Positions 1 through 60,817 are shown, counted from the first letter of the stretch. The stretch: 64,000 bases of DNA from an uncultured virus (IMG/VR IMGVR_UViG_3300036715_000622) (IMGVR_UViG_3300036715_000622); one strand, 5' to 3'. Notes: generated by a model from the sequence alone, not told the origin. A program made the numbers and translations.

Positions 1-169
1 TTGATTTTATTGGATTTTCTAAGTTATTGATTTTATTGGATTTTCTAAGTTATTGATTTTATTGGATTTTCTAAGTTATTGATTTTATTGGATTTTCTAA
101 GTTATTGATTTTATTGGATTTTCTAAGTTATTGATTTTATTGGATTTTCTAAGCCATTGATTTTATTGG
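1..169. repeat. 26-bp tandem repeat (TTGATTTTATTGGATTTTCTAAGTTA), about 6.5 copies, possibly truncated by the window edge
   Basis: Units start at 1, 27, 53, 79, 105, 131 and 157 (partial). No unique spacers. An extra partial copy lies at 247-266. Confidence 0.95.
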
Positions 170-401
170 CTTTTTACCCAGAATTGCGCGAATTGCGCTA
201 ACCCCTTGTTTTTACAAGGAAATTTGCGGAATTGCGCGGGTTAGGGTAAGTTATTGATTTTATTGGGTTAAATAAAGCTTGACAATGCGCGCGCATTGTG
301 CGAAAATATGTTATAAGTGGGAAAGTTTGCATTTTTGGCGCGGGCTGGCACGATTTTTGCTAAAGCAATTTTTAGGCCAGAAAAATTTTTTAATTTTTCG
401 C

Positions 402-461
402 TTGACAATTTTTTAGCGGCATGGTAAAATTGGCGCGGCCAAATGATAATCATTCTCATTT
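402..461 (+). promoter_or_regulatory. Rightward sigma70 promoter module 1 followed by Fur-box-like site
   Basis: TTGACA 402-407, 17-nt spacer, TAAAAT 425-430, TGGCGCGGCC, then AAATGATAATCATTCTCATTT 441-461. Confidence 0.8.
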
Positions 462-474
462 GGATTTTGGGCAA

Positions 475-538
475 GAAAAAAGCCAAGCTTTTAACTTGGC
501 TTTAATTCAAGGCCGGATTTTAACCCGGCCTTGGTTTG
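475..538. terminator. Two adjacent hairpins, probable (bidirectional) intrinsic terminator(s)
   Basis: AAAGCCAAG..CTTGGCTTT and CAAGGCCGG..CCGGCCTTG, downstream of the A2-like gene. Confidence 0.65.
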
Positions 539-539
539 A

Positions 540-878
540 TTAGAAGGGTTTGCTATTCGCAAGAGCGGCAAAAATCTTGTTAAGCGCTGTTTTGTTAGCC
601 TTGGTCAGGCTATCGGTTTCTGCCTCGGTAAAGCCAAGAATATTACCGATTGCATCCGCTACCGTGTCCTTCTTAGTAGGTGCTTCGCCAGTCTTTGTCG
701 TGCGCACCTTGGCAATATAAACCTTTTCACGGCTAAGTTTAGCAACGACAGACCTAACGCTTTTACCCATGCTGGAAGCCAGCAATTCTACAGTTTCCTT
801 GGTGGGATTCGCCGTGTATTCCGCAATCATTTTAGCAGTTTGGTCAGCGGTGTAGTTTTCAATTTTGGTAGTTGCCAT
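540..878 (-). CDS. A2: T5 A2-like pre-early DNA-binding protein (copy 1)
   Basis: NYTADQT...VELLASSMGKSVRSVVAKLSREKVY motif resembles T5 A2. Start moved to MATTK (878), which has GGAGA upstream. Confidence 0.8.
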   Translation of the reverse strand: MATTKIENYTADQTAKMIAEYTANPTKETVELLASSMGKSVRSVVAKLSREKVYIAKVRTTKTGEAPTKKDTVADAIGNILGFTEAETDSLTKANKTALNKIFAALANSKPF

Positions 879-954
879 TTTTCGATTCTCCATATTTTGG
901 CCGGGTTAGGAATTTTGGGATTTCGCTGGCCGTTTCGTCATCCCATGAAAAACA

Positions 955-1056
955 TTATACAGGGTTTAATTCATTTTTGCAAGTATTTTTTTTTTTTTTT
1001 TTTTTTTTTGTTATCTTATGAAAAACATTATATAGGATTTAATTCATTTTTGCAAG
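955..1056 (-). promoter_or_regulatory. Tandem duplicated leftward sigma70 promoters (TTGCAA-17-TATAAT) separated by a 24-nt homopolymer
   Basis: Near-identical ~35-bp copies at about 955-983 and 1027-1056; T24 at 986-1009. Confidence 0.7.
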
Positions 1057-1248
1057 TTTTTCTTTGAAATATTTAGCTTTTTTTCCACAACCAAAAAATA
1101 AAGCGTTTCTTTCAGCCATGCAGTATTCAGCATCCTGTTCAATCTTAATCTTTTCGCCAGAAACAGGGCTGATATAATAAGTAGGTTCCTTTAGTTTTCT
1201 GGTGCAGTAACCAGCATTAAAAAACTGGCAATCTTTGCAAAGTTTCAT
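1039..1248 (-). CDS. Small Cys-rich hypothetical protein
   Basis: CKDC...C...C...CG pattern; AAGGA upstream. Confidence 0.65.
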   Translation of the reverse strand: MKLCKDCQFFNAGYCTRKLKEPTYYISPVSGEKIKIEQDAEYCMAERNALFFGCGKKAKYFKEKLAKMN

Positions 1249-1412
1249 TTTGTCAATTCCTTTTTAGTCTTAATCAACAAATTCATGGCTTCCTTTTCAG
1301 GCATATAAAGCGCCAGCATATTAAACGAAGCGGAAAAGCTAAACTCCATAGCCTTAAACATGGCAAGAATATATGAAACCTTTGCATTGTTATTGCTATT
1401 TACTGTTTCCAT
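1245..1412 (-). CDS. Hypothetical protein, 55 aa (below ORF-track cutoff)
   Basis: METVNSNNNAKVSY...; AAGGGG upstream; stop overlaps the next start (ATGA). Confidence 0.55.
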   Translation of the reverse strand: METVNSNNNAKVSYILAMFKAMEFSFSASFNMLALYMPEKEAMNLLIKTKKELTK

Positions 1413-1518
1413 TTTTAACCCCTTATTTGTTTACCTGATAAGCTTATTATACATGAAATCACAAAAAAGTGTACGATTATTTTTATGGCGTTATAAATAA
1501 AATTAGTGCAAAAAGCGC

Positions 1519-1608
1519 TTGACAATTTTTTGACGGCATGGTAAAATTGGCGCGGCCAAGTCATTGATTTTAATAGCTTTTTTATTTTCCTTTATAATCA
1601 ATGGCTTG
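1519..1608 (+). promoter_or_regulatory. Rightward promoter module 2 followed by inverted pair of IHF-consensus sites
   Basis: TTGACA 1519-1524, 17 nt, TAAAAT 1542-1547, TGGCGCGGCC; WATCAANNNNTTR matches at 1557-1569 (-) and 1596-1608 (+). Confidence 0.75.
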
Positions 1609-1625
1609 CGAAAAATTAAGGGTAA

Positions 1626-1654
1626 AACAAAACCCGGATTTACCGGGTTTTGTC
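1626..1654. terminator. Intrinsic terminator hairpin
   Basis: ACAAAACCCGG-ATTTA-CCGGGTTTTGT. Confidence 0.7.
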
Positions 1655-1662
1655 AAGGGTTT

Positions 1663-2349
1663 TTATTTTGCAACGAATGCATCTTTTAGTTGACATTCTC
1701 GCCAATTATAAGGCCGCATTTTTTTACGCCAATTTTTACTTTTCAAAACATTAACCAAAATATGCCGCTCAAAATCTTTGCAATCTGCTAACGCTGTGTG
1801 CTGTTCTTCAGCCTTTATGCCAGTAACATAATGGCTCATTACTTCAGCATTGGTTTGATAAGTGGCATTCCCTAAATCAGTAACATTATTAAAATAATGG
1901 TTATCAAGTACGAATTGGCGATATTTTTTAGTTTGACCATGCAGGCCGTATGCTATCTGCCACAAACAAAGATATTCATTAAACCGGCTGAAATCAATCC
2001 CTGATTTCTGCAATTTATCTTTATCAAAAGCGGCATTATAGGATACGGCTATAACTTCGGGATATTTTGCTATAACGCGATCAAGCCAGCGATTAACGCC
2101 CTGAACCGATGATATCATAATCGAACCATTTTCCAGCATATTAGCATATTTTTGCTGGCGTAGTTTCAGATTCCAAAGCGTGCTTTGGTTATCATGAAAT
2201 AATGGCTCATTAGCAAAATCCTTAAGAATAACTGAACATTCCGATTCGATAGTGCCATGCCGATCACACAAAACTGCACCAAAATCGTAAACGTGATCCT
2301 GCATTGTGGTTTCTGTGTCAATTATCAAAAACATCTGTTTTTTTGCCAT
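1663..2349 (-). CDS. DEDDh-family 3'-5' exonuclease
   Basis: IIDTETT (ExoI), YNAAFD (ExoII), HTALAD (ExoIII). Start set at MAKKQ (AGGA upstream). Confidence 0.8.
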   Translation of the reverse strand: MAKKQMFLIIDTETTMQDHVYDFGAVLCDRHGTIESECSVILKDFANEPLFHDNQSTLWNLKLRQQKYANMLENGSIMISSVQGVNRWLDRVIAKYPEVIAVSYNAAFDKDKLQKSGIDFSRFNEYLCLWQIAYGLHGQTKKYRQFVLDNHYFNNVTDLGNATYQTNAEVMSHYVTGIKAEEQHTALADCKDFERHILVNVLKSKNWRKKMRPYNWRECQLKDAFVAK

Positions 2350-2446
2350 TTTCTTTTTTCCTATTTTACCGTTTTGCAATATGCTGGTACGGACAATCAA
2401 CCATGAAGCGCTTATTATACAGCATTTTTAATAAAAAATGCAAATT

Positions 2447-2929
2447 TTAATGGCCTTGTTTGGAAGGAATATAAACCCCTTTAATATTAAACTTATCGCA
2501 AACAGCCTTTAGGTAACTGGTATTATCCTCAAAAAATACGGCATTATTGCAGGCTGTTCTAAAATTTTTAAGATTAAAAAATTTTTGCAGACCTTTAATT
2601 TTCAGAGTAGCACCAGATTGGCTATCGCCTTCCTTTCTGCTGATAAAGTAGTCTGGCTTACCTAGTTTTTCATTAACAAATTTCCAGTCCTGCTCGCCCA
2701 TTACTCTAGCAGTCGCAATTATAACGTAAGTTTCGTTATCTGCCAAATCCGCTTTATATTGTTCTGCTAATGGCAGCAATGAATCGTTAAAAGCTTTATG
2801 GCTGTTATTGCGCCAATAGTCTAAATCAATAACTTCCTTACCATTTTTTTCTATCGTCTTATAACGATGCAAGCTACAAACTATCGTACCATCCATATCA
2901 TATATTGCCAATTTTTTAATCATTTCCAT
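2447..2929 (-). CDS. HAD-superfamily phosphatase (possible functional analogue of T5 dmp)
   Basis: YDMDGT motif I, ATAR motif II, K, FFEDN motif IV. Confidence 0.75.
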   Translation of the reverse strand: MEMIKKLAIYDMDGTIVCSLHRYKTIEKNGKEVIDLDYWRNNSHKAFNDSLLPLAEQYKADLADNETYVIIATARVMGEQDWKFVNEKLGKPDYFISRKEGDSQSGATLKIKGLQKFFNLKNFRTACNNAVFFEDNTSYLKAVCDKFNIKGVYIPSKQGH

Positions 2930-3036
2930 TTCCTTGTTTACCTAGTGAAAATAATTATATATGAACAAATAAAAAATGCAAGATAATTTTTATATTTTCT
3001 AGGCTAAATATATTTTTATATTTTTACAGGAAACGC

Positions 3037-3099
3037 TTGACACGTACAATTTTACATGGTAAAATTGGCGCGCCCAAATGATAATCATTCTCATTTGGG
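3037..3099 (+). promoter_or_regulatory. Rightward promoter module 3 followed by Fur-box-like site
   Basis: TTGACA 3037-3042, 17 nt, TAAAAT 3060-3065, TGGCGCGCCC, AAATGATAATCATTCTCATTT 3076-3096. Confidence 0.8.
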
Positions 3100-3112
3100 T
3101 TTTGTCAGTGTA

Positions 3113-3376
3113 TTATGCTGGATTTACAACAAAGACAATCTTGTCCGGAATCCGTGAAGGATATTCATTAGAAAAAGTTAAGTATTTAATTTTAGGATTA
3201 GATACAAGCAATTCTGGGCTGTAAGCAGGGAAATATTTATAATTCAAATATTCTAACGCTTTCCTAATAATTGCCTTTTCGTCAAAATATGCGCCAAATT
3301 CATTTTTTGGAATTTGGCTGATATCCTCATATAACTCCATGATATCTATAGTAAGTTTCATTTTCTCATTCTCCAA
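3113..3376 (-). CDS. Hypothetical protein
   Basis: ORF in the pre-early operon; true start probably MKLTID, with GGAG upstream. Confidence 0.55.
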   Translation of the reverse strand: MENEKMKLTIDIMELYEDISQIPKNEFGAYFDEKAIIRKALEYLNYKYFPAYSPELLVSNPKIKYLTFSNEYPSRIPDKIVFVVNPA

Positions 3377-3485
3377 TCATAATATACTGAAATCAACAAG
3401 AGGATTAAAATACCCATTAAATCATATGCTTTTACTTCCATAAAAGCATAGAAAAGTAGGGAAAGAAGCATCGCAACAGCGTATT

Positions 3486-3848
3486 TTAGCATAACCCGGC
3501 CTTTTTCCTTTGATTCAGCGTTATAAGTGGATGGTATACATCAGGGGACAATCCCATTTTAACCATTGTTTCCTTCCAATGCTTCCCATGTTTAGCATCC
3601 CCCGTCAAACGATATGCAATATGGTGGCATAATTCATGCGGAATAATAACCTTGTAAAAATATTCCTCATTGTGTGCCATTAGATATACGCTTAAATCTA
3701 TTTTATTAGAATCAAGCCATGCCCGGCCAGCAGTGGACGTTAGGCGGTTATTCATAACAATAATCGGCATTTTTCCTATTTTATCCCCAAAAATGCAAAT
3801 TGCATAATTCCACCATCCCGTGGCGTTCCTTTGTGCTTTAGCTAACAT
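3486..3848 (-). CDS. SprT-like zinc metalloprotease-domain protein
   Basis: RLTSTAGRA...IIPHELCHH...HGKHWK (SprT HExxH...HG pattern). Confidence 0.8.
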   Translation of the reverse strand: MLAKAQRNATGWWNYAICIFGDKIGKMPIIVMNNRLTSTAGRAWLDSNKIDLSVYLMAHNEEYFYKVIIPHELCHHIAYRLTGDAKHGKHWKETMVKMGLSPDVYHPLITLNQRKKAGLC

Positions 3849-4050
3849 AATTTACAATCCCCCACAAATTAACGCAAGAAAAAAATCCCCATTGCACAAT
3901 TCCGGCCTTATCTCGCACGTCAACAGAAGCATAAAGCCATGCAACAGAACCAGTTAAAAATGCAATATAGCCGTAAACTTGCAAGCCAGAATTGGCAGCA
4001 ACCAGAACCGAGCCGACAATTCCTGCAATAGTACCAATCCATTTGAACAT
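3838..4050 (-). CDS. Small membrane protein
   Basis: Three short hydrophobic segments; AAGGA upstream. Confidence 0.7.
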   Translation of the reverse strand: MFKWIGTIAGIVGSVLVAANSGLQVYGYIAFLTGSVAWLYASVDVRDKAGIVQWGFFSCVNLWGIVNYVS

Positions 4051-4122
4051 TTTAATTTATCCTTAGTTGATGGAATAATTATCCTATATTAAAAATAGTT
4101 TGCATATAACCCTGATGGGGTA

Positions 4123-4188
4123 TTGACAAGTTACGGATTATGGAGTAAAATTGGCGCGGCCAAGCCATTGAAAACAATGGCTTTTTAT
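4123..4188 (+). promoter_or_regulatory. Rightward promoter module 4 followed directly by a hairpin/T-tract overlapping an IHF-like site
   Basis: TTGACA 4123-4128, 17 nt, TAAAAT 4146-4151, TGGCGCGGCC, AAGCCATTG-AAAA-CAATGGCTT-TTT. Confidence 0.75.
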
Positions 4189-4197
4189 TATCAAGGG

Positions 4198-4530
4198 TTA
4201 GTCTACATTATACCCGATGCTTTCAAAATACTTCACCCAGTTATGAAAACTTAAGCCATGACCTACTTCTTCCTTATTTTCTAGCTGCCAAGCGTGGATC
4301 AATTCATGCAAAATTGTTTCCTCAATTGCTTTAGCTGTCATATTAAGAACAGTGGAAATTTTAATATTATGATATTCCTTCATATCCTTGCCTAGTTTGG
4401 ATTCATAGTATCCAAAGGTCTTATTTGATGAGCTTGGCTTAACTTTAATCCTATATTGTAGATTGAAGCCATAATACGTATTAAATGCGTTAGCTTTTTC
4501 CTCAAGGTACGCTTTAATTAACTTTTTCAT
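4198..4530 (-). CDS. SprT-like zinc metalloprotease-domain protein (second)
   Basis: TILHELIHAWQ...HGLSF. Confidence 0.75.
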   Translation of the reverse strand: MKKLIKAYLEEKANAFNTYYGFNLQYRIKVKPSSSNKTFGYYESKLGKDMKEYHNIKISTVLNMTAKAIEETILHELIHAWQLENKEEVGHGLSFHNWVKYFESIGYNVD

Positions 4531-4532
4531 GA

Positions 4533-4664
4533 TTAAAATCCTTTCCATTGAACATAACGCAATGTTACCATAAGCAGTGTAAAAAGTACAGCAAGAGGCA
4601 AAGAAGCGGCAGAAATTAATGCCATAATCATGCCCAAGGTAATGCCTTTTAATAGTGCGCCCAT
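4533..4664 (-). CDS. Small membrane protein, 43 aa
   Basis: Hydrophobic MGALLKGITLGMIMALISA...; GGAG upstream. The longer track start runs through promoter DNA. Confidence 0.5.
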   Translation of the reverse strand: MGALLKGITLGMIMALISAASLPLAVLFTLLMVTLRYVQWKGF

Positions 4665-4762
4665 TTTGTTAGCTCCATTCATTGTGTTATTTGATGATTC
4701 ATTATTGCATAGTGAGCACAATTTTGCAACATATTTATTTATATTTATTTTTGATTTACCTA

Positions 4763-4821
4763 TTGACACCGACAGTTTTACATGGTAAAATTGGCGCCGC
4801 CAGATGCTAATGATTCTCATT
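4763..4821 (+). promoter_or_regulatory. Rightward promoter module 5 followed by degenerate Fur-box-like site
   Basis: TTGACA 4763-4768, 17 nt, TAAAAT 4786-4791, TGGCGCCGCC, GATGCTAATGATTCTCATT 4803-4821. Confidence 0.75.
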
Positions 4822-4833
4822 CGCTATACAGTA

Positions 4834-4881
4834 GAACATCAAGCTGGCATGATCTTTGCTTATCATGCCAGCTTGATGTTC
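4834..4881. terminator. Perfect 20-bp inverted repeat (hairpin) at the end of the A2-like gene
   Basis: GAACATCAAGCTGGCATGAT-8 nt-ATCATGCCAGCTTGATGTTC. Confidence 0.65.
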
Positions 4882-5203
4882 ATTCAGCTTTAATGGCTTT
4901 CAGAAGTTTAGCAAGTACAGTCCTATTTGCTTTAGACAAGGAAGCGCATTCTGCTTCAGTAGCGCAGACCAGAAACCCGACCTGATAAGCCAGATCATCC
5001 TTTTTAACAGTAGCCTTATCAGACTGTGCATTTTTGACCTTGGCTTTGTAACAGCCTTCCCTGCTAAGTTTAGCAACAACAGACCTAACGCTCTTACCCA
5101 TGCGCTTCGCCAGTACCTCCACAGTGACGCCCTCGTTAGTATATGCCTCAATCATTGCGGCAGTTTGTTCAGCAGTATAGTTTACTTGTTTAGTGGTTGC
5201 CAT
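4880..5203 (-). CDS. A2: T5 A2-like pre-early DNA-binding protein (copy 2)
   Basis: NYTAEQT...VEVLAKRMGKSVRSVVAKLSREG; paralog of 540-878; AAGGAG SD. Confidence 0.8.
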   Translation of the reverse strand: MATTKQVNYTAEQTAAMIEAYTNEGVTVEVLAKRMGKSVRSVVAKLSREGCYKAKVKNAQSDKATVKKDDLAYQVGFLVCATEAECASLSKANRTVLAKLLKAIKAE

Positions 5204-5243
5204 TTTTTGATTCTCCTTAGTTTTTACTGCATTGAAAGATTAT

Positions 5244-5272
5244 ATTATATTAGAGTTAAGCATAGCTGTCAA
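5244..5272 (-). promoter_or_regulatory. Consensus leftward sigma70 promoter for the A2-like gene
   Basis: TTGACA-17-TATAAT on the minus strand. Confidence 0.85.
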
Positions 5273-5438
5273 GGATTATTTTACTAATATTATATTTATT
5301 TTTTATTTGTTATCTATTGCATTCTACTGTATAGTATGATATACTAGGGCAGGGCGGTTATTAGACTCGCTATTTTTCAACCGCTCGCCGACCCACCCAC
5401 ACGTAAAACTTTATAAGGCCCCATCAAAAGTCAATTAG

Positions 5439-5499
5439 GCGATAATTGCGATAATTGCGATAATTGCGATAATTGCGATAATTGCGATAATTGCGATAA
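5439..5499. repeat. 9-bp tandem repeat GCGATAATT x6.8
   Basis: Units start at 5439, 5448, 5457, 5466, 5475, 5484 and 5493 (partial). Confidence 0.95.
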
Positions 5500-5517
5500 G
5501 CATAAAAAATTTTTAAC

Positions 5518-5546
5518 TTGACATAACTTCCTTAAGCTGTTATAAT
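5518..5546 (+). promoter_or_regulatory. Consensus sigma70 promoter for the packaging operon
   Basis: TTGACA-17-TATAAT. Confidence 0.85.
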
Positions 5547-5574
5547 ATCTATATTATCATAATTATAATATAAC

Positions 5575-6054
5575 ATGAGCCTACCTATTACTCCACCTGC
5601 ACAAGCAGTACAAATCTCTCCAGAAGCATTGGAAGTAGCTAATCTCTATTTACAATGCCAAAATATGCAAACTGTATCGCTAGAATTAGATATACCAATA
5701 GAGGAAGTATCTGCAATACTATCGCGCCGAGAGGTAAGAGCCTATATTGACCAAGTATTCCAAGATGTTGGGTTTAATAATAGATTTAGGATGAGAGGTG
5801 TAATGGATACTCTAATCCAAAAGAAACTTAAAGAGTTAGACGAAGCCGATATAGGATCATCAAAAGATATTGCAGATCTATTAGCCCTTAGTCATAAAAT
5901 GACTATGGAAGTCTTAGATAGAGAGATTAAATTAGAGACAGCAAGGGCTAATAATACAAAAGTCCAAACTCAAGTTAATATGCAAGTTAATGATTTTGGG
6001 GATGGCAGTAAGTACGGAGACCTTATTAATAAATTGTTATCAGAAGGTAAATGA
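5575..6054 (+). CDS. terS: Terminase small subunit (T5-like)
   Basis: ISPEALEVANLYL...YIDQVF.D.GF.NR...KL.EL.E....SSKDI.DLL pattern of T5-type TerS; upstream of terL. Confidence 0.85.
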   Translation: MSLPITPPAQAVQISPEALEVANLYLQCQNMQTVSLELDIPIEEVSAILSRREVRAYIDQVFQDVGFNNRFRMRGVMDTLIQKKLKELDEADIGSSKDIADLLALSHKMTMEVLDREIKLETARANNTKVQTQVNMQVNDFGDGSKYGDLINKLLSEGK

Positions 6055-7269
6055 ATGTTAGACGTTATTACGCACGAATATAATAAATCTGTAGCGTATC
6101 TTAACAAGGGTAACTATAAGAAAGCTCTTGCAATACTTAAAAAGTGTCTTAGCCAGGTAGAATTTAAGGAAGCGTATCTAAATATTGGAAACTGTTATAG
6201 GATGCTAGGTCAGGATACTAAAATGATCGAATCCTATAAAAAAGCCTGCTCACCTAAAATAACTTTTCTTGATGGTCATACTGTAGAGGAGTACCCAGCT
6301 GGTCTAAATAATCTAGGTCTTGCCTACTATATGTGTGGATATGATGATCTAGCTATTGAGTGCTACGAGAGAGCAATGGCTGTGGAGCCTAAATTCTGGG
6401 ACGCTTGGTGGAATTGCAGTACAGCAGTATTACGTAAAGCCTCTTCGGGACAACTTGAGTTATTCCCGAGAGGATGGATGATGTATGATGCTAGGTTCCT
6501 AAAAACACCACCCATTAAAATGAAGAATACTAAAGCTTCTCTAGTTTATTGGGATAGAGTATCTTCAGGTACAGCAATAATTGTCTTAGCAGAACAAGGT
6601 ATTGGTGATGCTATTATGTGGGGCCGCTACTTACCCCTATTGGCGGAAAAGTTCTCCGAAGTATATGTACAGTGTGATGCAGAGTTAGAACCCGTATTTT
6701 CCGACTATAAATGTGTTAGAGATGCATCTGAGTGCCCAGCTGAATTAGCTATTCCAATGTGCACGCTTTCTAGGTGTTTTGATACTATTCCTTCTGGAGA
6801 TTGGTTACGTGATAAATTTTCTGCATTTGATTTTGGCACCTCTGAGAGGCTTAATGTGGGTATTGTACATCGTGGTTCAGCTACTCATGCTAATGATCGT
6901 AATAGGAGTGTTCCTATACACCGTTTTCATTTCCTTAGTAAGTATGTTAATCTTTACAGTCTTGTACCGGGGTTTAATACTACTAAACATGTTACTGGGT
7001 TGGATATCCACTCATGGGAAGATACGGCAAAATACATTAATGGACTCGATCTTGTCATCTCTGTCGATACGTCGGTAGCTCATATGGCGGGATCTCTTGG
7101 AGCCAAAACATGGCTCCTACAACCATTAAAAGAAACAGATTTTAGATGGGGTAATAACGTTTCTTCTAGCGTATGGTATGACTCTATACAAATTTTTAAT
7201 AATCCCAACTCTTGGGAGCATGTATTCTCCCAAGTAGAGGATGCAATAAAGTCGGAGTTATATTTATAG
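6055..7269 (+). CDS. TPR-repeat / glycosyltransferase family 9-like protein
   Basis: N-terminal TPRs (AYLNIGNCY, GLNNLGLAY); EQGIGDAI; C-terminal LDLVISVDTSVAHMAGSLGAKTWLL...DFRW...WYDS. Confidence 0.85.
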   Translation: MLDVITHEYNKSVAYLNKGNYKKALAILKKCLSQVEFKEAYLNIGNCYRMLGQDTKMIESYKKACSPKITFLDGHTVEEYPAGLNNLGLAYYMCGYDDLAIECYERAMAVEPKFWDAWWNCSTAVLRKASSGQLELFPRGWMMYDARFLKTPPIKMKNTKASLVYWDRVSSGTAIIVLAEQGIGDAIMWGRYLPLLAEKFSEVYVQCDAELEPVFSDYKCVRDASECPAELAIPMCTLSRCFDTIPSGDWLRDKFSAFDFGTSERLNVGIVHRGSATHANDRNRSVPIHRFHFLSKYVNLYSLVPGFNTTKHVTGLDIHSWEDTAKYINGLDLVISVDTSVAHMAGSLGAKTWLLQPLKETDFRWGNNVSSSVWYDSIQIFNNPNSWEHVFSQVEDAIKSELYL

Positions 7270-7270
7270 T

Positions 7271-8584
7271 ATGTTACTTATTAGTCGTCCAGACATAGAA
7301 TCAGAGTATATTCAGGAGTTTGATGTATCTGAGCGTTTCATCAAGCTCCCTGTAGCAAAGTATTTAGAATTATTACCTACTAAGGTTGATGGTAGGTCTA
7401 GTAATGTATTGGAAGAGATAAATAGACCTCAAATTGCATTAATCAACGCAATCAACTCACCTAAATATAGATTTGTATGTGCTGCACTAGCACGACGACT
7501 AGGTAAAACCTATATTGCTAATATTATTGCACAACTTGTAGTATTAGTACCTGGTTGCAATGTACTAATTATGTCTCCAAACTACTCACTTAGTTCTATT
7601 AGTTTCGAGTTACAGCGTAAGTTAATGGGAACTTTTGATCTTGAAATAGCTCGTGATAACTTGAAGGATAAGATTATTGAACTATCTAATGGATCAACCG
7701 TTAGAATGGGTTCTATTAATCAAGTAGATTCATCAGTTGGTAGGTCATATACTCTAATTCTATTTGACGAAGCAGCTCTATCACGAGATGGTGAAGCGGC
7801 TTTTAACGTTAGCTTACGACCAACTCTAGACCTGCCCAATAGTAAAGCTATATTTATTTCAACACCTCGTGGTAAGAAGAACTGGTTTAGCCGCTTCTAC
7901 GCCAGAGGATTTAGTTCAGAGTTTCCTGAGTGGGCTTCAATTACAGCTGACTATACCGAGAATAGTCGTATGAGCGAGAAGGATGTTCAAGAAGCTCGTA
8001 TGTCTATGACGCCAGCCGAATTTGAGCAAGAGTATCTCGCCTCATTTAATACCTATGAGGGACAGATATACACTCTTAGCGAAGAAAACATTGTTGATGA
8101 ACTACCAGAGGGCAAATATGAGTACTTTGGGGGAATTGACCCCGGCTACAAAGACCCAACTGCAGTAGTAATCATAGCCTATGATATAGAGAATAACATA
8201 TACTATATTATTGAAGATTATTTAGAGGCACAGAAAACCACTGCACAACACGCTGAACATATTAGAGAGATGCTATCTAGGAATGATGTAGAAGTGCTAT
8301 TTATTGACTCAGCAGCTGCGCAATTTGCAGGCGACCTAGCGTATAGCTATGACATTGCTACAATTAAAGCTAAGAAGGCAGTGCTTGAAGGAATCGCATA
8401 CGTTCAGACCTTAGTACAGAGAGATCAATTAAAAGTATTAAGAAGTTGCAACCATGTATTAGATGCTATGGATCAGTATCAGTGGGACCCTAACGAAAAC
8501 TTAACAAAAGAAAAACCTGCTCACAATGAAGCATCCCACATAGCAGATGCTATTAGGTACGCTTTATACTCCTTTACTCTATAA
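7271..8584 (+). CDS. terL: Terminase large subunit (T5-like)
   Basis: ARRLGKT Walker A, ILFDEAA Walker B, ISTP, GIDPG nuclease motif, HIADAIRY. Confidence 0.95.
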   Translation: MLLISRPDIESEYIQEFDVSERFIKLPVAKYLELLPTKVDGRSSNVLEEINRPQIALINAINSPKYRFVCAALARRLGKTYIANIIAQLVVLVPGCNVLIMSPNYSLSSISFELQRKLMGTFDLEIARDNLKDKIIELSNGSTVRMGSINQVDSSVGRSYTLILFDEAALSRDGEAAFNVSLRPTLDLPNSKAIFISTPRGKKNWFSRFYARGFSSEFPEWASITADYTENSRMSEKDVQEARMSMTPAEFEQEYLASFNTYEGQIYTLSEENIVDELPEGKYEYFGGIDPGYKDPTAVVIIAYDIENNIYYIIEDYLEAQKTTAQHAEHIREMLSRNDVEVLFIDSAAAQFAGDLAYSYDIATIKAKKAVLEGIAYVQTLVQRDQLKVLRSCNHVLDAMDQYQWDPNENLTKEKPAHNEASHIADAIRYALYSFTL

Positions 8585-8596
8585 GAAAAACATAAA

Positions 8597-9160
8597 ATGA
8601 ACTCTGGAATCTATAAACTAACATTTAAAAGTGGCAAGTACTATATTGGCAAAAGTAATAATATAGATCGTAGGTGGAAAGAACACCACGATAAATTTAA
8701 TCGTGGGAAAGCTGCTACTCGTATGCAGCAAGAGTTTAATAGGTATGGTATGCCTAAAGGAGAGGTTTTACTATATTGCCACGAAGATCATATAGATATT
8801 ATGGAAGCTTTGTACATTCATAGTAATTGGGGACCAAATATACTAAATAGTACCCACCCTATTACAGTTAGCCAGAGTGATTATAATGCTTTAGTTAAAC
8901 ACCCAGAGCTACTAAACTATAGTACTGCCTCACACTGTCTAACCATTTATAATAATGCAATAGAGATACGCGATTTAAAGAAAGAATTAGAAAATACTAA
9001 TAGAGAGTATAAGAGAAAAATAGCAAATATAGTGCCAGGCACAGCATTACAAGAATCTGAAGATCTAGTATCAGAACTTGAATCAGAAGTACTAGATCTA
9101 AAGAGAGAGTTACGTAAACTTAAATCACGTAACTGGTTTGAACGTCTTTTTAACTTATAG
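8597..9160 (+). CDS. GIY-YIG endonuclease with C-terminal coiled coil
   Basis: SGIYKL...YYIGKS..I.RRW.EH...E...N. Confidence 0.85.
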   Translation: MNSGIYKLTFKSGKYYIGKSNNIDRRWKEHHDKFNRGKAATRMQQEFNRYGMPKGEVLLYCHEDHIDIMEALYIHSNWGPNILNSTHPITVSQSDYNALVKHPELLNYSTASHCLTIYNNAIEIRDLKKELENTNREYKRKIANIVPGTALQESEDLVSELESEVLDLKRELRKLKSRNWFERLFNL

Positions 9161-9226: not shown

Positions 9227-9260
9227 AAAACCGCTAACTATTAATAGTTAGCGGTTTTTT
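9227..9260. terminator. Bidirectional intrinsic terminator
   Basis: AAAACCGCTAACTAT-TA-ATAGTTAGCGGTTTT between convergent genes. Confidence 0.85.
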
Positions 9261-10704
9261 ATTTTAATACCCAAACATCATTACCACAGTCAAATACTCT
9301 ATAGTATCCAGCCTCTTTCATTATCTCTACTTCAGTCATCTCCTCCTTATATACCTCAGGAAATAGTTCCTTTAATTTATGTTTTTGACACTGATACCTA
9401 GACAAGGATTTAAGTCCTCTATAGTACCTATAGTTAGGAGCAGAAGTGTGTAGGTACTCAAATCCTAGTTTTTTATATAGGGCCCCAGTACTCCAGCGCC
9501 TATCACTATAGCTAATAATAGATCCTTTATGCCCCTTAATAAAGTACTTTAGTAGCTTAGAAGCCCCACCTACTACAGTTATATCTAGTAAAGAACAATA
9601 ACGAACTAATTCATAGTCGTACCCTTTAGTAAACTTGGGAGTACTAAAGGTCATGACTGCAACTAATTCATCATAGTAAAATAGTCCCAAATTTATAGAA
9701 GAGGGAGAGCCAGCACCCTGTATATGGTTAGCCTCTAAAAACTCTCGGGGAAATCCAATTTCTTTTACTATGCATTTACGTGCACCTATCTGATCTGTAC
9801 TACCTAGTATAGATTTAATTCGGGACTTTACTATATCTTGTTTATTAATCCATTCATCTTCATTAATATGAATTAATTGGTATCCAAAATTCTCTACACC
9901 TATAGTCTTATCAAGATGATACCTACTGCCTTTAATTTCCTCTCTATGATGGTATACCCCATTAAACTCAAAAGCCAACCCAAGATCTGGCAGAACAATA
10001 TCTATCTCTTTACCTTCTAAGATATCTCTATCCCCCGAAATCACCCATCCAGAGTATATTGACTTTATATAGGTAAGTAACTCAAGTTCCTTATTAGAAG
10101 TATTAGGATTACACTGAGGGCATATACTAGAGTCACCCCGTTCTAGTATATTATTAGGGCGTACCTGTGTAGTATGATCACAGGTAGTATACCCTATCTG
10201 AATAAGCTCCCTACTATGGGTATACTCAGATAGCACTTTAACAGTGGGGTATAGTAAAGATAAATCTGCTATAAATTGTTCAGTACTCTTCTTTCTAGTT
10301 ATAGCTGGTGTACATTTTCTACAAATACTGCCTATTTTCTGAGTAAGAAAATTATCAGGGATTATACTCCAAGTATTATGACAGTCATTACATTCAACAA
10401 GTATTGAAGTTTTAGCATTTATATACTTACCTACCACTTTAATATTGGGGGTAATAGTAGCTACTTCTTGCTCAAATTGTTCCTGCGTTTTCTTATTATA
10501 AACCTGAACTGGATTACATATCCTACATGTACTTCCAGTACCCTTACTTTTTAATCTATCTGGCACTATCTCCCACTCATGACCACAAGCCCCTTTAACT
10601 AACACTTTACTTTTAGCATTAATATATTCCCCTACTACTAATAAGGTAGGATGAGTTATACGCATATACTCCTTAAATTTATTGCTATTTATACTTGTAA
10701 TCAT
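9259..10704 (-). CDS. Hef-like free-standing endonuclease (zinc-ribbon repeats + PD-(D/E)xK/Vsr-like core + C-terminal domain), copy 1
   Basis: Three Cys-rich repeats; EIDIVLPDLGLAFEFNGVYHH; ARKC...HIQG...YSDRRW. Start set at MITS (10704), AGGAG SD, own TTGACT-17-TATAAT promoter at 10726-10754. Confidence 0.75.
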   Translation of the reverse strand: MITSINSNKFKEYMRITHPTLLVVGEYINAKSKVLVKGACGHEWEIVPDRLKSKGTGSTCRICNPVQVYNKKTQEQFEQEVATITPNIKVVGKYINAKTSILVECNDCHNTWSIIPDNFLTQKIGSICRKCTPAITRKKSTEQFIADLSLLYPTVKVLSEYTHSRELIQIGYTTCDHTTQVRPNNILERGDSSICPQCNPNTSNKELELLTYIKSIYSGWVISGDRDILEGKEIDIVLPDLGLAFEFNGVYHHREEIKGSRYHLDKTIGVENFGYQLIHINEDEWINKQDIVKSRIKSILGSTDQIGARKCIVKEIGFPREFLEANHIQGAGSPSSINLGLFYYDELVAVMTFSTPKFTKGYDYELVRYCSLLDITVVGGASKLLKYFIKGHKGSIISYSDRRWSTGALYKKLGFEYLHTSAPNYRYYRGLKSLSRYQCQKHKLKELFPEVYKEEMTEVEIMKEAGYYRVFDCGNDVWVLK

Positions 10705-10791
10705 ATTTATTCTCCTATTTATATTATTATAAAATAAAAACAAGTAAAAGTCAAGACTAAATTTTATGGCCCAGCATAAAAAATTTTATCC

Positions 10792-59437: not shown

Positions 59438-60817
59438 TTAGGCATCCCAGGGTAAATCCGTTGCGGGTTCTTCTACTTTATGCGACTTTTTTCCAGCTTT
59501 CTTAATAGTTTCCTTTTCCGGTGGAGGCTCAACTGAATGTGGGCTAATTCTAAGAGTATCCCAATTCATACCACTAGTAAATGTTCCCTCTCTAGCTCCA
59601 CGAGATTTGGTAGTTTCAAAACCTAAAGCATTAGTACTTTTATCATGGGCTTCCATAATAAGAGAAGTATCAGCAGCATCCAGAATACCTTTAGCGAATC
59701 TAGCCTCTCCTGAAGCATCAATTTGATATGGGCTAAGCATAACTACATCATACTTACGGGCTAGGTCTTTTAACTTCTTGGATACTAGCACTTGGGGCTG
59801 CCAATCAAACTGACTATATCCACCCTCAATAACGATCTGATTTAGATAGTCAACTACTACCGTGGTTAGTTTATCTCCAAAGCGTGCTTTTAATTTACCT
59901 ACGTGTAGGTCAATAGAAGATAGTGTAAGTGCTCTATCATCCACAATTATGATCTGATTATCTACTTTTAGTTCTTTTTCTTTTACTAGACGACTTTCAA
60001 ACTTAAACCTATCACCAGTTTCTATAAACTCTTTAACTAGATCAGATGCGTCCTGAAACATATTAGCTCGTGCTTTTACTAGCTTGAGGGTCTCATCTGG
60101 AGTCAGTTTATTATGTTTCAGGTTCTGATGATTAATGTCTGCATGAATACTCATAATACGTTTCAGAGTTTCTGCGCTAGTCATCTCAATAGTGAAATAC
60201 ACTGATGAATTACCCATCTCATATTGATTTACCACCACGTTAGCCGCTGTAATAGATTTACCAGATCCGCGCTTTCCACCAATTAAGATCAGATCCTGTC
60301 TAAGAACACCGATATCTGCATCAAAGGTATTGTTAAGACCTAAGAATACTCTATTACGTGCTACTTCATCTTCATGTTCAAATAATAGCATATTATTCAT
60401 TGAATATACACCCTCAGTAGTAAGGGTCTTTTCATCAATGGTTTGCACTATGTGTGCTAGATTATCTTTAATTTCTATTGTGTCAAATAGTGGTAGTTTA
60501 TCTACAAACCTATCTAGTAACCTAATGGTTTCGTCTTGCGTATACTGATCTATTAACGCATCTAGCGCGACTTCCGCGCTTATTTCGTCAACTTGTACTA
60601 ATTTAAGAGCAGCAACTACTTTGGAGGTTGCACCCTCTCTTAAAGAAATTTCTAAATCTTCAAATGTTGGAAGACTATTATATTTATTATAGTGTCTTGA
60701 TATTGCACTATATACTGAGGAGTATGCAGAATCTAAGAAGGATATCTTTAATTTTGCCCATAAATCTAGGCTGCCCTCAGTCAATAGCTTATTAAGAACT
60801 ACCGCTGAAATATCTAT
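59438..60817 (-). CDS. Replicative DnaB-like helicase (T5-type)
   Basis: GGKRGSGKS, FTIEM, VVDYLNQ, SPYQIDASGEARFAKGILDAAD; probable ATA start at 60817. Confidence 0.9.
   Translation of the reverse strand: MDISAVVLNKLLTEGSLDLWAKLKISFLDSAYSSVYSAISRHYNKYNSLPTFEDLEISLREGATSKVVAALKLVQVDEISAEVALDALIDQYTQDETIRLLDRFVDKLPLFDTIEIKDNLAHIVQTIDEKTLTTEGVYSMNNMLLFEHEDEVARNRVFLGLNNTFDADIGVLRQDLILIGGKRGSGKSITAANVVVNQYEMGNSSVYFTIEMTSAETLKRIMSIHADINHQNLKHNKLTPDETLKLVKARANMFQDASDLVKEFIETGDRFKFESRLVKEKELKVDNQIIIVDDRALTLSSIDLHVGKLKARFGDKLTTVVVDYLNQIVIEGGYSQFDWQPQVLVSKKLKDLARKYDVVMLSPYQIDASGEARFAKGILDAADTSLIMEAHDKSTNALGFETTKSRGAREGTFTSGMNWDTLRISPHSVEPPPEKETIKKAGKKSHKVEEPATDLPWDA

Follow-up and report, generated by a model that had tools for sequence, protein, structure and literature searches.

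A discriminator-defined class of gene-less promoters in the pre-early-like block of an environmental T5-like virus

A 64,000-nt stretch of DNA from an uncultured virus (IMG/VR IMGVR_UViG_3300036715_000622), hereafter the window, carries near its left end a block of small leftward genes and, in the gaps between them, five promoter modules that point rightward, away from these genes. Between 540 and 5203, every open reading frame (ORF) with any family match is on the minus strand; the families comprise two SprT-like proteins, an exonuclease-like protein, an HAD phosphatase and two paralogous small DNA-binding proteins, and the genes are syntenic and likewise minus-strand in a relative, L052. A preliminary description of this DNA had assigned all credible genes to the minus strand and had claimed five ORF-less plus-strand promoter copies as a repeated cis system, and both claims hold. 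A scan of the whole window for TTGACA-N17-TAAAATTGGCGC gives five exact plus-strand matches (0 mismatches) at 402, 1519, 3037, 4123 and 4763; no sixth match exists in the 64 kb with up to two mismatches, and 0 of 100 dinucleotide shuffles matched. These modules, numbered 1 to 5 from left to right, and the hairpins that follow them are as follows.

402..436, plus strand: module 1 promoter; -35 at 402-407, 17-nt spacer, TG-extended -10 at 425-430, GGCGC discriminator at 432-436
439..463, plus strand: module 1 palindrome CCAAATGATAATCATTCTCATTTGG, 11/12 pairs, a Fur-type box, then ATTTTGG
479-503 (acting on the minus strand) and 507-534 (acting on the plus strand): predicted terminator hairpins between module 1 and the convergent A2-like gene
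1519..1553, plus strand: module 2 promoter; -35 at 1519-1524, -10 at 1542-1547, GGCGC at 1549-1553
1558-1590, plus strand: module 2 stem AAGTCATTG-ATTT-TAATAGCTT with T-run, an AAG...CTT stem
1596-1612, plus strand: arm of a longer inverted repeat of module 2, with two inverted IHF-core matches
near 1631-1653, plus strand: second hairpin of module 2, with TTTT
3037..3071, plus strand: module 3 promoter; -35 at 3037-3042, -10 at 3060-3065, GGCGC at 3067-3071
3073..3103, plus strand: module 3 palindrome CCCAAATGATAATCATTCTCATTTGGG (3073-3099) with TTTT, a Fur-type box and terminator-like hairpin; the convergent gene 3113-3376 is next
4123..4157, plus strand: module 4 promoter; -35 at 4123-4128, -10 at 4146-4151 without TG, GGCGC at 4153-4157
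4162..4188, plus strand: predicted intrinsic terminator of module 4, AAGCCATTG-AAAA-CAATGGCTT (stem-loop 4162-4183) with TTTTT, a 9-bp stem 5 nt after GGCGC
4763..4797, plus strand: module 5 promoter; -35 at 4763-4768, -10 at 4786-4791, GGCGC at 4793-4797
4806-4824, plus strand: module 5 palindrome GCTAATGATTCTCATTCGC, Fur-like
4834-4881, plus strand: long hairpin of module 5 with a 20-bp stem, overlapping the end of the convergent gene 4880-5203; no U-run

In a consensus scan, all five modules match 11 of the 12 hexamer positions (-35, 6/6; -10, TAAAAT, 5/6; spacer, 17 nt), and the -10 element is TG-extended in every module except that at 4123. Alignment of the five leaves the hexamers and 13 bases, GTAAAATTGGCGC, invariant and the spacers and flanks variable, and this combination of constant hexamers with varying spacers is the signature of selection on polymerase contacts. 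Spacer sequence is common to modules 1 and 2 and to modules 3 and 5. We hold this anatomy with high confidence. Judged by these elements, the modules are most probably sigma-70-type promoters of one special class, marked by the invariant GGCGC discriminator and pointing away from the genes.

Among viral sequences, 18 contigs carry the exact pattern, in 23 stretches. Bacterial genomes totalling 596 Gb have it at only 16 places, which are scattered over unrelated taxa and have nothing in common downstream; borrowing of a host rRNA- or tRNA-type promoter by the phage was rejected on this ground, and the pattern is a phage element. G001 is a near-identical fragment of the window, and G002, about 90% identical, keeps all five modules and has a sixth just left of the window start. 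L051 and L052 were found independently of the motif, as relatives through homology of TerS (62-67% identity), and they too have genes that run leftward and promoters that run rightward; GGCGC lies 0-3 nt from the -10 in 4 of 9 promoter-like sites in L051 and in 3 of 8 in L052. G007 (112 kb, 100% complete) has four sites, all on one strand within 5.5 kb, and none elsewhere. The module class is represented by two sites in G006 and four in G008 as against 0 in the controls, a similar pattern is seen in G003 and G005, and the spacer of the class is 17-18 bp. Homologs of Dmp adjoin the modules in seven of eight sources, with none in the 8-kb piece of G005. The design recurs in environmental relatives and is confined to the Dmp block, so that the conservation in related phages, which the preliminary description had named as a check on its claim, is indeed found. 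The terminal repeat of T5 has no such promoter.

G004 presents a mirror image of the design and includes two face-to-face module pairs whose starts are about 12 bp apart. This GC-richer relative has CATTACAAATTTGTAATG, which is operator-like, as a perfect 18-bp palindrome between the orphan and the gene promoter in every cassette (L030, at 4610, 5497, 6708, 8008 and 8601).

The label pre-early-like for the block is reasonable because of a Dmp homolog and a weak A2-family match, and these agree with the pre-early region proposed in the preliminary description. T5 Dmp matches window 2666-2941 by tblastn (30% identity, E 9e-10), and both proteins match phrog_415. The 117-aa protein encoded at 540-893 matches the T5 A2 family, phrog_1725, weakly (E 5e-4) and over nearly its full length; T5 A2 itself scores 4e-52. 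No homolog of T5 A1 was found in the window (best E 0.53). The large terminase is 48% identical to those of Vibrio phages of about 113 kb, and phages of Escherichia and Salmonella are also among the 1236 matching records. The T5-like phages used for comparison are classed in Demerecviridae, and a near-identity DNA search of window 1-6000 against GenBank phages gave no match. The relatives are classed as linear, without end repeats.

A hairpin follows all five promoters, that of module 3 being the palindrome with its TTTT. Two kinds of hairpin are found: a terminator type after modules 2 and 4, and a palindrome type after modules 1, 3 and 5. The terminator type is a 9-bp stem, AAG......-loop-......CTT, with a T-run, and starts 5 nt after GGCGC; in module 2, the stem is followed by TTTTTTATTTT, the U-run side of the predicted terminator. 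This stem covaries. The arms read AAGCCATTG/CAATGGCTT, AAGCCTTTG/CAAAGGCTT, AAGTCCTTA/TAAGGACTT and AAGCCCTTA/TAAGGGCTT, with a T-run after each, and at three stem positions the window, L028 of G002 and L052 differ in their Watson-Crick pair, with two or three pairs per position; A-T, T-A and C-G are seen at one position, and C-G or T-A at another. The hairpin of modules 2 and 4 is probably an ordinary intrinsic terminator, and the RNAs predicted there are only about 30-35 nt long because the terminator starts 5 nt after GGCGC.

Folding of the first 50 transcribed bases was compared between 40 distinct GGCGC modules and 34 other promoter-like sites of the same loci. The mean minimum free energy was -12.9 for the modules and -6.5 for the controls (Mann-Whitney p = 1.6e-5), and the mean shuffle z was -2.37 versus -0.32 (Mann-Whitney p = 1.6e-4), p-values which, like the conservation of the core, are inflated, since the compared sequences are kin, many of them found through the motif, and their independence is overstated. 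A stem begins within 25 nt in 34 of the 40 modules and in 19 of the 34 controls.

The preliminary description had read IHF-like sites at modules 2 and 4 and an alternation of these with Fur-like sites. The IHF core WATCAANNNNTTR has two inverted matches at module 2, 1557-1569 on the minus and 1596-1608 on the plus strand, and none at module 4; the window has 17 matches versus 6.9 expected, 7 of the 17 in the left tandem repeats. The IHF reading of module 4 was rejected for want of the core, and that of module 2, where the matches exist, was demoted to a side effect of terminator-family sequence, which the covarying stem explains better. The IHF-like label is mostly coincidence. The alternation comprises five data points from one lineage and is not kept in relatives, as the modules of L052 are all of the terminator type.

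Window 1-400, left of module 1, is a gene-free repeat region. Its six 26-bp tandem units at 1-160 (about ten in G002, L028 1325-1565) are decayed elements of the module 2 and module 4 terminator kind. The sixth GGCGC promoter of G002 (L028 1213) reads into this tandem array, and the array may be transcribed as a repeat RNA. The other features of this region are the following.

181-240, plus strand: AATTGCGC repeat, related to the GCGATAATT units
279-307, plus strand: weaker promoter-like site
337, plus strand: GGCGCGGG

The palindromes of modules 1, 3 and 5 had been described as Fur-box-like, and this reading has gained weight. Modules 1 and 3 agree with the 19-bp Fur consensus at 15 of 19 positions, and module 5 does so at 15 of 19 on the minus strand. 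Fur-like sites with at most four mismatches number five in the window; 30 shuffles gave 0.77 on average and 5 at most. Read by eye as 9-1-9, modules 1 and 3 match 17 of 18 positions and module 1 of G002 matches 18 of 18; between the 7-1-7 and 9-1-9 readings of the Fur box, an excerpt of PMC2189734 favors 9-1-9. The dyad of modules 1 and 3 pairs at 11 of 12 positions, and the lone T.C mismatch is found likewise in the T5-like phage VEc33. It is restored to T-A in module 1 of G002 and to G-C in module 3 of G002, in G003 and in NBSal003, and the G-C variant also occurs in VspSw_1. Restoration of a mismatch in two different ways in relatives indicates that the symmetry of the palindrome is under selection. 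Each of these palindromes appears to be a near-perfect Fur-type box and a candidate operator. They are like known Fur boxes in consensus match and in a dyad symmetry kept by compensating changes, but the box of the modules lies after the start (about +6 to +30) instead of over the -35 and -10 elements, and it doubles as an RNA hairpin. In G003 (L029), Fur-like palindromes at 4600-4800, 5260-5350, 6620-6700 and 7540-7660 are flanked by a repeated GC-rich hairpin, CACCCTCGC...GCGAGGGTG, and at 7620-7656 GGGCGCGG and a 27-nt palindrome behind it stand without a promoter upstream.

The same element is found in T5-like coliphages and their kin. A distant BLAST search with module 1 matched 292 phage records, including Escherichia (112), Salmonella (91), Klebsiella (33), Vibrio (14) and Aeromonas (5), and the matches cover only window 432-480, that is, GGCGCGG and the palindrome. 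Window 432-473 is 86-90% identical to T5-like terminal repeats over 40-44 nt; among the matches listed, many lie about 9 kb into the record and some are annotated as left terminal repeat. VEc33 reads ...GTAACACCC...CGCGG|GCGCGGTCAAATGATAATCATTCTCATTTGA, and its 82-nt element is present at no less than 80% coverage in 179 of 199 matching T5-like records. In VEc33, NBSal003 and VspSw_1, as in modules 1 and 3, GGCGCGG is followed by CAAATGA(T/G)AATCATTCTCATTTG, nearly identical, and in both settings a hairpin comes next and then the end of a convergent gene. Unlike the modules, the T5-like element has GTAAY, half of a nick site, 34-36 nt upstream and no promoter in front, and there are one or two copies of it, close to where the first-step-transfer DNA ends, whereas the modules occupy every intergenic gap. 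T5 itself does not have the element at the corresponding spot; arrays of the same palindrome lie in its injection-stop (iss) region, at 9545-9725 and next to the 7.9% nick. A host protein that is itself conserved, Fur for example, would fit such conservation across hosts better than would a phage protein that evolves fast.

The nick sites of T5 look bipartite, with a second half-site about 36 nt upstream. At the annotated nick 9748/9749 of T5 the nick core is found on the minus strand, each core has GTAAY 34-36 nt upstream, and the pattern GTAAY-N28-32-RGCGCRG was derived here from five T5 sites. On the minus strand of T5 (AY543070) it has exactly five matches, at 9749, 22337, 39747, 78574 and 121280, with 0 in controls; four of these (18.3%, 32.6%, 64.5% and 99.6% of the genome) fit what we take to be the map of major nicks. 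VEc33 and VspSw_1 each have five sites, all on one strand, with 0-1 control matches across the three genomes, and one predicted nick site of VEc33 and one of VspSw_1 stand directly before the palindrome common to modules 1 and 3. In the window, ATTTTTGGCGC(G/A)G occurs without a promoter at 337 (328-346); it resembles plus-strand bipartite matches in the terminal repeats at T5 4423-4465 and VEc33 4436-4478, on the strand without major-nick pattern matches.

Within the block, each module occupies an intergenic gap, each of modules 2 to 5 is set back to back with a weaker leftward promoter, that of the next unit, and the hairpin of each module sits between the module and the 3′ end of the next leftward gene. 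Back-to-back gene promoters are also present in L052, L051 and G004. The genes and leftward promoters, all on the minus strand, are as follows.

540-893, minus strand: A2-like gene (117 aa), weak phrog_1725 match
1039-1248, minus strand: ORF
1245-1412, minus strand: ORF
1663-2349, minus strand: exonuclease-like gene
2447-2929, minus strand: Dmp-like HAD gene (160 aa)
3113-3376, minus strand: ORF, convergent to module 3
3358-3492, minus strand: ORF
3486-3848, minus strand: SprT-like gene
3838-4050, minus strand: ORF
4198-4548, minus strand: SprT-like gene
4533-4691, minus strand: ORF
4880-5203, minus strand: A2-like paralog, convergent to module 5
982..954 and 1055..1027, minus strand: duplicated leftward promoter TTGCAA-17-TATAAT serving gene 540-893, from the consensus scan
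4729..4701 and 5272..5244, minus strand: further leftward promoters, from the consensus scan
near 1449-1477, 2414-2444, 2955-2982 and 4085-4105, minus strand: further leftward promoters, read by eye

The leftward promoter of 540-893 is carried on a 73-bp duplication at 933-1078, whose copies are separated by a run of about 23 T. The stretch 5244-5546 holds a divergent pair of perfect consensus promoters, the minus-strand 5272..5244 and the plus-strand 5518..5546, which precedes TerS; seven tandem 9-bp units, GCGATAATT, lie between the two promoters at 5439-5501. Two homing/HNH endonuclease genes stand beside the large terminase, at 8597-9160 (plus) and 9259-10743 (minus; phrog_559, E 7e-128).

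The reading preferred here, tentatively, is that the cassettes are a separately controlled, cis-acting class of promoter-terminator or promoter-operator units that tune or insulate the leftward pre-early units. A consensus -35, a TG-extended -10 and a G two bases after the -10 should make for very tight and long-lived polymerase binding. RNA polymerase would be captured at the modules with very high affinity, to be let go 30-110 nt farther on. At modules 2 and 4, release would take place at the intrinsic terminator, leaving an RNA of about 30-35 nt; at modules 1, 3 and 5, a hairpin of the 19-27 bp palindrome would form and terminators would follow within about 35-110 nt. Through a polymerase roadblock, competition or local supply, the leftward units could be insulated and tuned. 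The common GGCGC discriminator would make the promoters a separately switchable class, in the way that T5 separates its temporal classes by the discriminator; according to an excerpt of PMC7472727, T5 promoter classes differ mainly in this element, and gpT5.026 acts on the contact between polymerase and discriminator. Three of the five modules (1, 3 and 5) may in addition be gated by a Fur-family protein bound just past the start site.

Several points weigh against this preference. First, the starts, ends and strength of the module transcripts are all predicted from the DNA. Second, a plain terminator would insulate equally, which leaves the need for a consensus promoter unexplained. Third, a GC-rich discriminator does not call for so strict an invariance of GGCGC, which suggests that some other factor recognizes this sequence specifically. 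Fourth, in the 40-module set only 10 of 34 stems are followed by at least four T in the next 7 nt, and many of the hairpins may not terminate, so longer antisense transcripts are possible. Fifth, the divergent -35 hexamers are about 17 to 54 bp apart as read by eye, with no fixed geometry for cooperation. Finally, the face-to-face pairs of G004 fit polymerase docking and not productive transcription, and the kinship of the compared sequences noted above applies here as well.

Three of the alternatives, namely docking or decoy sites, trans-acting small RNAs and PeSL-like recombination, are not mutually exclusive. The modules could be DNA-level docking sites for host proteins on the first-entering DNA, a dispersed counterpart of the T5 injection-stop region, with their RNAs as by-products. 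RNA polymerase, a Fur-family protein and perhaps IHF or an A2-like protein would ratchet, anchor, protect or pause the DNA, or would themselves be titrated. We regard this as rather unlikely, and yet it accounts for several observations. Both hairpin types are also found without a promoter, in the Fur-type arrays at T5 9545-9725 and in the array of module 2/4 elements at window 1-160, and the 82-nt palindrome element is present in 179 of 199 matching T5-like records. The region left of module 1 follows the order of the T5 iss region on the T5 minus strand (repeats, GCGC core, hairpin, palindromes, convergent gene), face-to-face promoter pairs exist in G004, and a passage of the Davison preprint (10.1101/866236) proposes binding of host DnaA at iss. 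Against docking, the plus-strand T-runs after the stems and the covariation of the stems point to termination at the RNA level, and neither an entry end nor terminal repeats of this DNA are in evidence. There is no enrichment of DnaA boxes, with 5 in the window versus 7.4 expected, of which a single one falls in the block, within a gene, and the likeness to T5 DRD repeats extends over only about 8 nt.

It is quite unlikely that the modules are genes for trans-acting small RNAs of about 30-110 nt, those of modules 1, 3 and 5 being Fur-repressed and iron-responsive in the manner of RyhB. A promoter, a 5′ hairpin and a 3′ terminator make up the usual layout of such genes, the RNAs predicted for modules 1, 2 and 5 are about 85-105 nt, and the Fur-type box lies at about +6 to +30. 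However, an Rfam search of window 1-6000 (E up to 5) returned chance-level matches and no significant family, the best E being 0.16, far below gathering scores. The transcribed parts differ wholly between modules and between relatives, except for the terminator stems and the palindrome, and no conserved single-stranded seed is evident. Module 2 has no relative in GenBank phages (best E 0.1 in a distant search), and in T5-like phages the same palindrome is conserved with no promoter before it.

A third alternative, already raised in the preliminary description, is that this clade has its single-chain interruptions (nicks) at the GGCGC core, with a plus-strand cut G|GCGC comparable to R|GCGCRGG of T5. 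It is a fair lead in the likeness of the core and in the position of the coliphage element on a predicted nick site, and it fails in the GTAAY half, which is found in none of the five modules; on balance it is distinctly unlikely. Modules 1, 2 and 4 read G|GCGCGGC, to be compared with the T5 consensus R/GCGCRGG given in an excerpt of PMC3517423, from which the last base differs. The five bipartite matches in T5 at the annotated nick and at positions that fit the presumed map, together with the VEc33 and VspSw_1 sites directly before the shared palindrome, lend it further support. The T5-type bipartite site has 0 occurrences in G001, G002, G006, G007 and G008, so another site must serve if these genomes are nicked; either the clade is without nicks or the modules took over the role. 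All modules are on one strand, and over the whole window plus-strand GGCGC is rare outside the block (3 versus 13.3 expected), with 17 versus 12.7 on the minus strand. The plus-strand rarity holds in regions of both gene orientations.

Further evidence tells against a nick site. The sole bipartite match of the window (60172-60213, minus strand) is near chance, as 6 of 100 shuffles do as well, modules 3 and 5 depart from RGCGCRG and differ from R|GCGCRGG at two positions, and the modules are clustered, whereas T5 nicks are spread across the genome. GGCGCSS shows no strand bias in G007 (4 and 4) or G006 (3 and 4). The position of GGCGC is already explained by a GC-rich discriminator, and nothing indicates that the clade is nicked. 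A Chi-like protection signal was also considered for the one-strand orientation and was set aside, GGCGC being invariant across GC contents, unlike the host-specific Chi.

Very unlikely as a full account is a chiefly evolutionary role, in which the cassettes, like the PeSLs of T4-type phages, would be portable promoter/terminator repeats through which small early genes are swapped by homologous recombination. PeSLs are composite terminator/promoter motifs that mediate modular shuffling, as an excerpt of PMC4122927 puts it. The likeness is considerable: both are short repeated units of promoter and stem-loop between small variable early genes, and in both the copies within a genome are similar enough to recombine. 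Indeed, the small variable genes flanked by the cassettes are neither the same nor in the same order in the window, L052, L051 and G004; two cassette pairs of L052 are near-identical over more than 150 bp, and spacers are shared between modules as noted above. The difference lies in direction. The PeSL stem-loop ends the upstream gene and its promoter drives the next gene, whereas the module promoter faces away and transcribes the stem-loop only, and a separate weaker promoter serves each gene unit. Recombination accounts for neither of two further features that set the modules apart from PeSLs, the invariant GGCGC discriminator and the Fur-type box of three copies. It is also compatible with every other reading and so is not a true alternative.

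We consider it highly improbable that GGCGC is a nick site within the melting region of the promoter, such that opening and firing, or retention of polymerase, would be limited to nicked DNA from virions, and this would mark the parental, first-entering DNA. Scarcely credible is the start of nearly leaderless micro-ORFs for small hydrophobic peptides at modules 1, 3 and 5 (MIIILIWILGKKK..., ATG 5-8 nt past the predicted start); the ATG is at the same place in all three and the first residues are hydrophobic, but there is no ribosome-binding site, modules 2 and 4 lack such an ORF, the module 3 frame is not kept beyond about 10 codons between the window and G002, and substitutions obey the symmetry of the palindrome (an Ile-to-Arg change, for instance, is matched by one in the opposite arm), and the candidate was rejected on the last two counts.

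Among the known systems close to the modules is the promoter of lambda pR′ with its terminator tR′. pR′ is a constitutive promoter with a nearby terminator and gives a short RNA until antitermination. The modules are alike in having a strong promoter with a terminator close behind, and within the Fur-type box GATAAT resembles a -10 element and could make sigma-bound polymerase pause. They are unlike it in that no Q-like antiterminator or binding element has been identified and that read-through from a module would be antisense to the early genes. The temporal classes of T5, as excerpted from PMC7472727, are alike in belonging to a T5-like lineage, in using host sigma-70 polymerase and in having, from the -10 to the start, a sequence specific to the class. 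In the T5 early promoters this is ATATT (PMC7472727), whereas the modules have GGCGC, have no genes, and are without a counterpart in the T5 terminal repeat. The word "promoter" occurs 0 times in the Davison preprint (10.1101/866236), and no paper linking Fur boxes to T5 first-step-transfer DNA or describing such orphan promoters was found in a search that left older T5 promoter-mapping papers outside its scope.

A gene-less promoter class, defined by its discriminator, is confined to the pre-early-type block of an environmental T5-like branch. Its cassettes are compact natural units of a strong promoter with an immediate terminator and may serve as insulators. How T5-type phages time their first genes, and what the nicks and the repeat-rich injection-stop region do, are unsolved questions, and this locus links a promoter class by sequence to a conserved Fur-box-like element that lies beside a predicted nick site in the coliphage terminal repeat. 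If GGCGC were indeed a nick site within the promoter, then, along with the Fur-family boxes common to the T5-like phages of Escherichia, Salmonella, Klebsiella, Vibrio and Aeromonas, it would link DNA entry and the pre-early programme to nicks and to the iron status of the host, and the nicks and injection-stop palindromes of T5 would gain a function.

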